Assembly (NCBI GenBank): GCA_964016885.1
Contig: OZ024740.1
Span: 338,272,001-338,336,000 of the forward strand
Direction of reading: 5' to 3'
DNA length: 64,000 bases
Source of the DNA: Eledone cirrhosa
Lineage: Eukaryota
Under the pieces are notes generated by a model that was not told where the DNA came from, did not search any database, and was given only the letters and a program-made list of their open reading frames with translations. A program made the position numbers and the translations under genes. Shown here piece after piece: positions 25,068-26,805 of this stretch (the stretch's first letter is position 1; the number at the start of each line of letters is the position of its first letter).

Positions 25068-25410
25068 GATAAACGGAAAAAATGAAACGAAATTTCATTT
25101 CCCACTCTTAGTATGGCTGTTACTTAAATATAAGTATGTATACGTACATACATATATGTATACAGACGTAGAGTAGTATGTATATATACATACATGCACA
25201 CATATATATATGTACGTATGGATTCACTGAACATTTATTATAATGCTCGGTGTGTTTGTAAACAAACATCCCGTATTAAGCCGTAGTGTCTAGCAACCAT
25301 CGTTGCTCATTTGTTCAAAACTGACAAAGGAATGCTGTACTAGTTTCAAGCTTATTAGCTATCGTCAGCAACGTATACCTTCCTGCCAGATGATTGAATG
25401 TCTGAAAGTA
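25068..25410 (-). repeat. Diverged partial copy of the 441-bp hammerhead unit; HHR at 25334-25372
   Basis: GTTG CTGACGA tAGCT-aata-AGCTt GAAA CTAG TA CAGC on the minus strand; homologous to 26418-26780. Confidence 0.8.
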
Positions 25411-25606
25411 TATATTTATATACTTATATATATATATATATATATATATATATATATATATATATATATATATATATGTAGGAGGTGAGTTTTATTGTAG
25501 TACAATAAAGCAATGCAGATATCGGATAAGTAGCACTCTACAGTTTGTAGGACTGGAGTATAAATAATAATATATAAGACCAAAAGATGGTTAAAAGAGT
25601 TCCATG

Positions 25607-25677
25607 TATTTTATTATGCGCATTTCAAAAACAAATATTATCATGCAATAACATTTACGTTTTCATCAGATAAAATA
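25607..25677 (-). ncRNA. Type I hammerhead in a probable PLE pLTR (25478-25965)
   Basis: TATTTTAT CTGATGA aaac..AAATGTTATT-gcat-GATAATATTT..gttttt GAAA TGCGCA TA ATAAAATA. Confidence 0.82.
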
Positions 25678-26218
25678 GGGAGACATGACATGAAGGTTAA
25701 AACACACTTGTGAATAGTGCAGTTTTAAATCAACATATGAAAAGTAGTTTTAGATTGATGTGTGATATTTGGAAAAAAATTGAGGGGGGTGGGGTGGAAT
25801 GGATGAAAAAGAGGAGGAGATGAGAGTAAAAAGTGGAGGGGGAGGCATATAATGAGGAAGGATGAGATAGGAGGAGAGATGGGTGATAGAGAGAGAGAGA
25901 GATAGTTTTTATAACTGAGAAAAATATATTGTTTTATATAGAGAGGTTGAAAAACCGTTGGAAGATAATATATATATATATGTATATATATATATATATA
26001 TACATATATATATATATACATATATATATATATATATACATATATATATATATATATATATATATATATATATATATATATATATATATATATATATACA
26101 CATATATATATATATATATATATATATATATATATATATATATATATATATATATATATATATATATACATATATATATATATATATATATATATATATA
26201 TATATATATATATATATA

Positions 26219-26805
26219 GGCAACCACGTCACTTTTTTGTTCAACACTGACACAGGAACGATGTACTAGTTTCAAGCTTATTAGCTATCGTCAGCACCGT
26301 ATACCTTTTTTCCAGATGGTTGAACGTCCGAAAGTATATACTTTCCTATGAAAATTAACGGCTGAGCAGCCTAATTTGCATATCGAGTGAGTTCAGTCGG
26401 CCAGGCGCACCGAAAACGATAAATGGAATAGAATGAAACGAAATTTCATTTCTCACTCTTAGTACGGCACTTACTTAAATGTAAGTATGTATGTATACGT
26501 ACATACATATATGTATACAGACGTACAGTAGCATGTATATATATACATACAGGCACACATATATATATGCACGTATCAGTTTACCGAACATTTATTATAA
26601 TGCTCGGTTTGTTCGTTTGTAAACAAACAAACAGCCTGAATTACGCCGTACAGTGATTAGGCAACCACGTCACCTTTTTGTTCAACACTGACACAGGAAC
26701 GATGTAATAGTTTCAAGCTTATTAGTTATCGTCAGCACCGTATACCTTTCTGCCAGATGGTTGAACGTCCGAAAGTATATACTTTCCTTATGAAAATTAA
26801 CGGCT
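26219..26805 (-). repeat. 441-bp tandem unit (about 1.3 copies) with hammerheads at 26258-26300 and 26699-26741
   Basis: GGCAACCACGTC occurs at 26219 and 26660. The minus strand reads ACGGTG CTGACGA tAGCTaataAGCTt GAAA CTAG TA CATCGT. Confidence 0.85.

Follow-up and report, generated by a model that had tools for sequence, protein, structure and literature searches.

The closest described counterparts of the repeat considered here are the metazoan non-LTR retrozymes of coral, mussel and axolotl (Cervera & de la Peña 2020, PMC7229834), which form head-to-tail arrays of 150-450 bp units with a GC content below 45%, carry a canonical type I hammerhead ribozyme, lack an ORF, give a strongly self-paired circle and occur in genomes that also hold Penelope-like elements (PLEs) with minimal hammerheads. 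Reverse transcription beyond unit length has been described for the class (PMC7229834). The canonical metazoan type I hammerhead design is described as requiring a dimer (PMC4209133). Vertebrate retrozymes derived from the pseudo-LTRs (pLTRs) of PLEs were presented in a preprint (Li, Clavereau and Pollet, bioRxiv 10.64898/2026.07.22.740005), in which PLEs are again the proposed mobiliser and in which eight of nine predicted Xenopus retrozyme dimers failed to cleave in vitro. The enzyme that moves animal retrozymes is an open question, and the proposal that PLEs provide it was derived from co-occurrence, shared hammerheads and pLTR homology (10.64898/2026.07.22.740005, PMC7229834, PMC7761336). 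The second relevant system is that of the PLEs with a C-terminal endonuclease (EN+) of the Neptune/Nematis type, which have a GIY-YIG domain with CCHH residues, a minimal hammerhead and a (TA)n target, and whose insertions show 5' truncation, an inverted 5' segment and a junction palindrome (PMC8557442, PMC3846280).

We analyzed a stretch of 64,000 nucleotides (the window), which is AT-rich and packed with (TA)n tracts and repeated LINE-like pieces, a make-up that points to an animal genome. It contains a 441-bp hammerhead unit that an earlier note had described as a second retrozyme-like family; that designation is supported, among other things by a solo copy without a PLE and by a core conserved beyond its flanks across families, but the note had overlooked what is most informative about the locus, a PLE fragment that adjoins the unit. 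The features are as follows, in window positions.

25968-26218, no strand: (TA)n target tract to the left of the composite, 251 bp
26219-26805, minus: candidate retrozyme unit array, 1.33 head-to-tail copies, period 441 bp, GC 37.6%
26258-26300, minus: intact type I hammerhead of copy 1, core 26264-26294, predicted cut between 26264 and 26263 at a GUA site
26699-26741, minus: damaged hammerhead of copy 2, core 26705-26735, changes at 26707 and 26726
26805-26814, no strand: site at which retrozyme and PLE meet head-to-head; the 10 nt form a perfect AT palindrome, and nothing of (TA)n remains
26810-27151, plus: 3' end of the PLE ORF, GIY-YIG endonuclease with CCHH residues, open to the stop, 5'-truncated
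27152-27605, plus: PLE 3' UTR or pLTR-like region, A-rich, unstructured, ending in (TA)n
27353-27395, plus: PLE-type minimal hammerhead, helix I of 4 bp, helix II of 7 bp, 5' bulged G
27606-27761, no strand: (TA)n target tract to the right of the composite, 156 bp
25068-25417, minus: diverged solo unit fragment of 350 bp, 84%, between the (TA)n tracts 25021-25067 and 25425-25477, without a PLE
25332-25374, minus: hammerhead of the diverged copy, core 25338-25368
41097-41973, minus: second copy of the same PLE, for comparison, ORF part 315/336 identical, same 3' end, without a retrozyme

The tandem arrangement of about 1.3 copies claimed for 26219-26805 was confirmed by a period test, in which 441 was the best of all periods from 300 to 600 tried on 26219-26810, and by alignment of the overlap between copies 1 and 2, which differ by five substitutions and one indel over 146 columns. 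No array of the unit beyond 1.33 units was found in the window. The diverged copy, previously taken to end at 25410, is present and runs to 25417 with 83.7% identity to the unit. When target-site duplications were examined, both flanks of the unit loci proved to be (TA)n; the copies are dispersed, begin and end at differing unit positions, and lie embedded in such tracts, which are found on both sides of all three blocks consisting of hammerhead repeats only as well as of the retrozyme-PLE composite. Read round the circle, the longest ATG ORFs of the unit are of low complexity and span 38 aa in the sense and 43 aa in the antisense direction, in accord with the previous statement that it has no credible ORF. 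The monomer folds strongly relative to shuffles on the ribozyme (sense) strand (z -6.95 linear, -5.9 circular) and less strongly on the opposite strand (z -4.34), the high score being owed partly to a TA-rich hairpin. All four hairpins named earlier were recovered, two of them in both loci.

Every sequence-level feature of non-LTR retrozymes that was checked is present in the unit, namely a canonical hammerhead, a length within 150-450 bp at low GC, the absence of coding capacity, self-pairing and dispersal. It differs from the described members of the class (PMC7229834) in lying at the top of the size range and in being joined to a PLE fragment. We regard the unit as probably a metazoan non-LTR retrozyme, that is, a non-coding parasite of retrotransposons.

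Minus-strand hammerheads, as claimed, are present at all three cores. That of copy 1 has a helix I of 6 bp, which continues past an internal loop with arms reaching ~26325 and ~26236, a helix II made of a U·U and 3-4 bp, and a palindromic helix III of 6 nt. The earlier drawing had the core and strand right but left out the U·U that closes helix II. It had likewise recognized the damage to stem III in copy 2, where the change at 26707 hits both the helix III palindrome and N16.2, but not that helix II is also damaged, by the change at 26726. In the diverged copy the core is identical at 31/31 positions and a G·U in helix I is replaced by U·G, both as reported before, and one further helix I pair is lost. 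Two consecutive units with complete hammerheads, by which the preprint defines an 'active' locus (10.64898/2026.07.22.740005), are not what is seen at 26219-26805, where copy 2 is mutated. Since copy 2 has two private damaging changes, the locus is probably inactive, to judge from its letters, and only other copies could yield 441-nt monomers.

A relaxed type I scan gave 17 matches in the window, compared with a mean of 0.02 and a maximum of 1 in 100 shuffles; two belong to the 441-bp family, 11 to a 310-bp family, one to the adjoining PLE and three to other sequences, and the hammerhead of copy 2 was not picked up. No hammerhead reached the Rfam gathering score anywhere in the window, nor was there one among the 71 matches at E<=10 in 25000-27700; the Rfam matches to mir-297, mir-3149 and the like were rejected as matches to TA hairpins, far under the gathering score. 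A covariance model built from seven hammerheads found nothing in the window beyond the 14 already known, the next match having an E value of 0.22.

The architecture is the published canonical metazoan one and not the minimal type of PLEs (PMC4209133). Compared by description, its U·U at the base of helix II is like that of axolotl HHR_Amex2, and its weak palindromic helix III is like that of HHR_Amex1, whose cleavage is dimer-dependent (PMC7229834); the difference is that both weakening features are united in one ribozyme here. Because of the U·U and the palindromic helix III, the ribozyme probably cuts as a dimer. Computed folding energies fit dimer cleavage without proving it: for copy 1 the double hammerhead is predicted at -16.2 kcal/mol versus +0.6 for two active monomers, and the homodimer of copy 2 at only -3.2 kcal/mol. 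In the same nearest-neighbour model, which leaves out core and tertiary contacts, the MFE structure of the monomer lies 7.5 kcal/mol lower than the active fold and traps the core in a different register, and the double hammerhead is no more stable than two misfolded MFE monomers (2 x -8.7, ~-17.4 kcal/mol).

Comparison across seven hammerheads supported the helices. In this set 93.5% of the cells were paired, a share matched by 0/500 shuffles and compared with 18-39% in slid controls, and both sides had changed in 8 of the 11 pairs; several of the rows are related and the two outside rows, L002 and L007, were picked for having helix I, such that the covariation is partly selected. These two come from metagenome contigs, in which the exact family pattern had no match and a relaxed degenerate pattern hit 12 loci, helix I being present in L002 and L007; the other ten, without helix I, were dropped as chance matches. 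The relaxed pattern had no match in viral contigs. The cores of L002 and L007 are identical to that of the 441-bp unit at 30/31 and 28/31 positions, respectively, with nothing else alike, and their terminal repeats imply units of 1075 and 987 bp. Because the helices covary and the same 31-nt core recurs in these two unrelated units of ~1 kb, the sequence comparison leads us to regard the ribozyme of the 441-bp unit as real. A core more conserved than its flanks was thus found strongly across families and weakly between the two loci of the window (31/31 versus 278/315 identical, naive P ~0.02). As a separate observation, L002:1-1153 and L007:1-1108 bear four and three telomere-like CCCTAA repeats versus ~0.2 expected; they may represent retrozymes associated with telomeres, or PLE repeats, from other eukaryotes.

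Four of 23 listed public sequencing runs, no RNA run being among those listed, were compared with 26219-27600, the runs with a small share (X7-X20) being left out. In X1, X21 and X5, contigs or reads covered all 30 of 30 bins with many variants, and by this measure the 441-bp family is abundant in public runs, depth not being a copy number. Summed depth over the unit in X1, which may be the window's own sample, is of about the same order as over the PLE ORF. Among X21 reads the intact letter was found in 15030/15993 at 26707 (94%) and in 14957/15222 at 26726 (98%), compared with the free position N7, at which 856/3669 reads vary (23%). Among the 40 of 227 variant rows listed, the remaining core changes affect N7 (23%) and loop II (59%), positions at which change is tolerated. 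One class of loose ends from X1 (median 12 letters, agreement 0.67, 45 contigs) gives way to TA close to the unit position at which the diverged copy does, a weak hint of a preferred 3' end of the unit. In X4, which has another organism label, a 478-nt contig runs through the unit and past the position at which the window joins it to the PLE; we dropped this single unit contig as a sign of circular RNA, the library type being unrecorded. Also set aside, as probable library artefacts at or near AATT sites, were the joints in X21 (RAD) from 26628 to 27598 on opposite strands and from 27591 back to 27146, the loose ends before 27146 and the read ends at 26798. X21 depth was not used, its peak beginning at a GCATGC site.

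The PLE fragment at 26810-27605 has both of the EN+ marks that were tested, a C-terminal GIY-YIG domain with CCHH residues (Pfam E 4.4e-5, above the cut-off) and a minimal hammerhead together with a (TA)n target, and it can be designated as Neptune/Nematis-like by the definitions given in PMC8557442, the clade being read from motifs in its relatives. The best of these relatives are 52-61% identical to it. Long ones show, by eye, RT-like and cysteine-linker motifs just upstream, Pfam naming the RT in 1/8. A word-indexed search found no longer PLE proteins. A viral-contig search returned a single match, at 24%. The terminal repeat of the PLE folds like its shuffles (z +0.4). The 5' truncations of the copies at 26810 and 41973 lie at most ~6 nt apart, immediately ahead of the GIY-YIG domain, and possibly mark a stop or jump hot spot. 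Beyond the 5' end of the second copy, ~800 bp of AT-rich non-coding DNA (41975-42777) reaches to the next TA tract; it could be ordinary host DNA or a further template that was captured. The terminal region of the PLE also survives in decayed form at 51506-51667 and 55427-55501; the piece at 55427-55501 stops in (TA)n at an alternative 3' end, which 175 X1 contigs share.

The composite at 26219-27605 consists of the minus-strand retrozyme and the plus-strand PLE end, with their 5' ends joined and their 3' ends facing the TA tracts. A palindrome like that at the joint would arise by chance with a frequency of ~1% by window background or ~6% by local frequency (5/781 and 3/570), and is weak evidence. 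PLE insertions often have an inverted 5' segment, palindromes at head-to-head joints and foreign sequence captured in trans (PMC3846280); the composite differs from insertions described for C-terminal EN+ PLEs in that its inverted segment is a foreign retrozyme and not a copy of the PLE. It also differs from the evidence in the preprint, which rests on co-occurrence and pLTR homology (10.64898/2026.07.22.740005), in being a physical junction with no homology to the joined PLE. We found no report of a retrozyme joined to an unrelated PLE in the literature within reach, that is, outside subscription journals and the supplements of PMC7229834 and the preprint.

We propose that such a composite formed as follows. 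By analogy with the known class (PMC7229834), intact arrays elsewhere would be transcribed, hammerheads would pair in twos via their palindromic helix III, cleavage would take place at GUA, and the resulting 441-nt monomer would be ligated into a circle. The locus itself suggests that a Neptune/Nematis-like PLE protein then nicked (TA)n and copied the circle for more than one round, giving 1.33 units. The RNA of the PLE itself may have served as template for extension at one target end and that of the retrozyme at the other, or the enzyme may have jumped between templates; the outcome would be two 3' ends that face the TA tracts and two 5' ends joined to each other, and the locus would have decayed afterwards. 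In vitro, the one PLE protein that has been studied cleaves AT-rich DNA, both strands of which it extends (PMC11167929). TA-microhomology priming is not claimed, as the 3'-end overlaps are 1-2 nt and initiation without homology has been reported (PMC11167929). Counting against our reading are that the junction was seen once and was bridged by no read or contig among those listed, that no cross-mobilisation was seen between PLE types (PMC3846280) and that most predicted Xenopus retrozyme dimers did not cleave (10.64898/2026.07.22.740005). One event with two templates would explain the orientation, the target and the missing TA together, and we consider the chances to be evenly balanced that the composite is one PLE-driven insertion that used two RNA templates. 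The more specific version, in which the locus is the fossil of one PLE integration that drew on its own mRNA and on an unrelated retrozyme circle read for more than one round, falls slightly short of that. The explanation in its broader form, a retrozyme in a PLE-driven composite at a locus that has since decayed, appears likely to us.

The main rival is that the retrozyme and the PLE are two separate insertions into the same (TA)n, moved by any TA-targeting enzyme, with the intervening TA deleted at the second 5' junction. Elsewhere in the window, (TA)n does harbour each of the elements without the other, and TA tracts are insertion hot spots here, with 68 perfect stretches of at least 20 bp in the window. 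Moreover, target-primed insertion commonly deletes target at 5' junctions. On the other hand, no TA unit is left at the junction even though the flanking tracts measure 251 and 156 bp, and the head-to-head orientation is one typical of PLE insertions (PMC3846280). We see two insertions with a deletion as a serious competitor, if a somewhat doubtful one, and the remaining three alternatives as less likely.

It could also be argued that the unit is the pLTR of a different, unseen PLE family, the array then being the inverted 5' part of a PLE insertion, without independence as an RNA element. PLEs regularly have inverted 5' segments (PMC8557442), some PLEs carry palindromic or canonical hammerheads (PMC4209133), Xenopus retrozymes have been reported as kin of PLE pLTRs (10.64898/2026.07.22.740005), and ORF-linked copies could exist beyond the window. 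The unit is, however, without sequence identity to the terminal repeat of the adjacent PLE (alignment scores of 24 and 24 on the two strands versus shuffle means of ~21, reached by 11 and 17 of 100 shuffles), and its hammerhead is canonical in place of the minimal one of PLEs, with a long helix II, a short helix I and a bulged base (PMC4209133), a criterion that is not absolute. In addition, successive hammerheads follow one another without an ORF between them, and the copy at 25068 is solo. At the two loci in the window, as far as this view extends, no RT-EN ORF flanks the unit in the same orientation. The three loose ends within the unit among the 24 of ~2100 X1 rows listed are all unit variants or TA. 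An unseen PLE is accordingly unlikely as the source, and there is a high probability that the unit is not an ordinary PLE terminal repeat.

Less probable still is that the unit is satellite or minisatellite DNA that has kept its hammerhead as a fossil, multiplies through repair or unequal crossover and has ceased to spread by way of RNA, a model put forward in the preprint (bioRxiv 10.64898/2026.07.22.740005). A satellite would be suited by the damage to copy 2, by the modest lead in conservation that the core has over its flanks within the window and by the result of placing the diverged copy on the circular MFE, where outside the ribozyme no pair had changed on both sides in a compensatory way (six pairs kept one-sidedly, ten broken). 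The model fits poorly, however, with copies that are dispersed in (TA)n with differing start and end positions and with the intact ribozyme letters in most X21 reads at 26707 and 26726. A mis-join in the assembly would be in keeping with the high copy number of both families and with the finding of no bridging read or contig over the junction among those listed from the runs; the two sides have no repeat in common that would invite it, however, and it is very improbable.

The class itself has been known since 2020, and with the junction set aside the 441-bp unit would add a further family to it; the informative part is the junction, which bears on the question of which enzyme moves animal retrozymes. 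One such junction was seen. A retrozyme head-to-head with an unrelated PLE in one target turns the idea that PLEs do so into something that can be counted genome-wide, and it points to a specific PLE family. If the more specific version, with one integration that drew on two RNAs, is true, the locus would be evidence of a physical kind for the mobilisation of retrozymes in trans by PLE enzymes that need no pLTR homology, and would single out the enzyme family to be tested directly. It would also suggest a widespread, dimer-only hammerhead subtype, with a U·U at the base of helix II, an AAYR loop and a palindromic helix III, in at least four unrelated repeat families.

Other repeats were noted in the window. 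The 310/311-bp family forms arrays at 9422-11182 and 22865-24902, both of them in (TA)n. The earlier description of the 441-bp unit as unrelated to it holds for the sequences, whose alignment scores are at shuffle level, but not for the ribozyme, as the two cores are of the same length and design. The second 310-bp array contains a head-to-head inversion with itself at 24309-24315, the same geometry as in the retrozyme-PLE composite, and a 171-bp duplication. Two copies of a short repeat with a minimal-hammerhead-like motif, at 11531-11745 (minus) and 35593-35797 (plus), with a similar piece near 3106-3242, may stem from the terminal repeat of another PLE family. Single hammerhead-scan matches with a long, poorly paired helix II were found at 1589-1669 (plus) and 25607-25677 (minus). 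LINE-type reverse transcriptase copies lie at 29147-33702, 37164-38964 and 47832-49445, some of them 95-97% identical to one another, and 11829-12172 is a near-perfect inverted repeat of 344 bp (97.7%).
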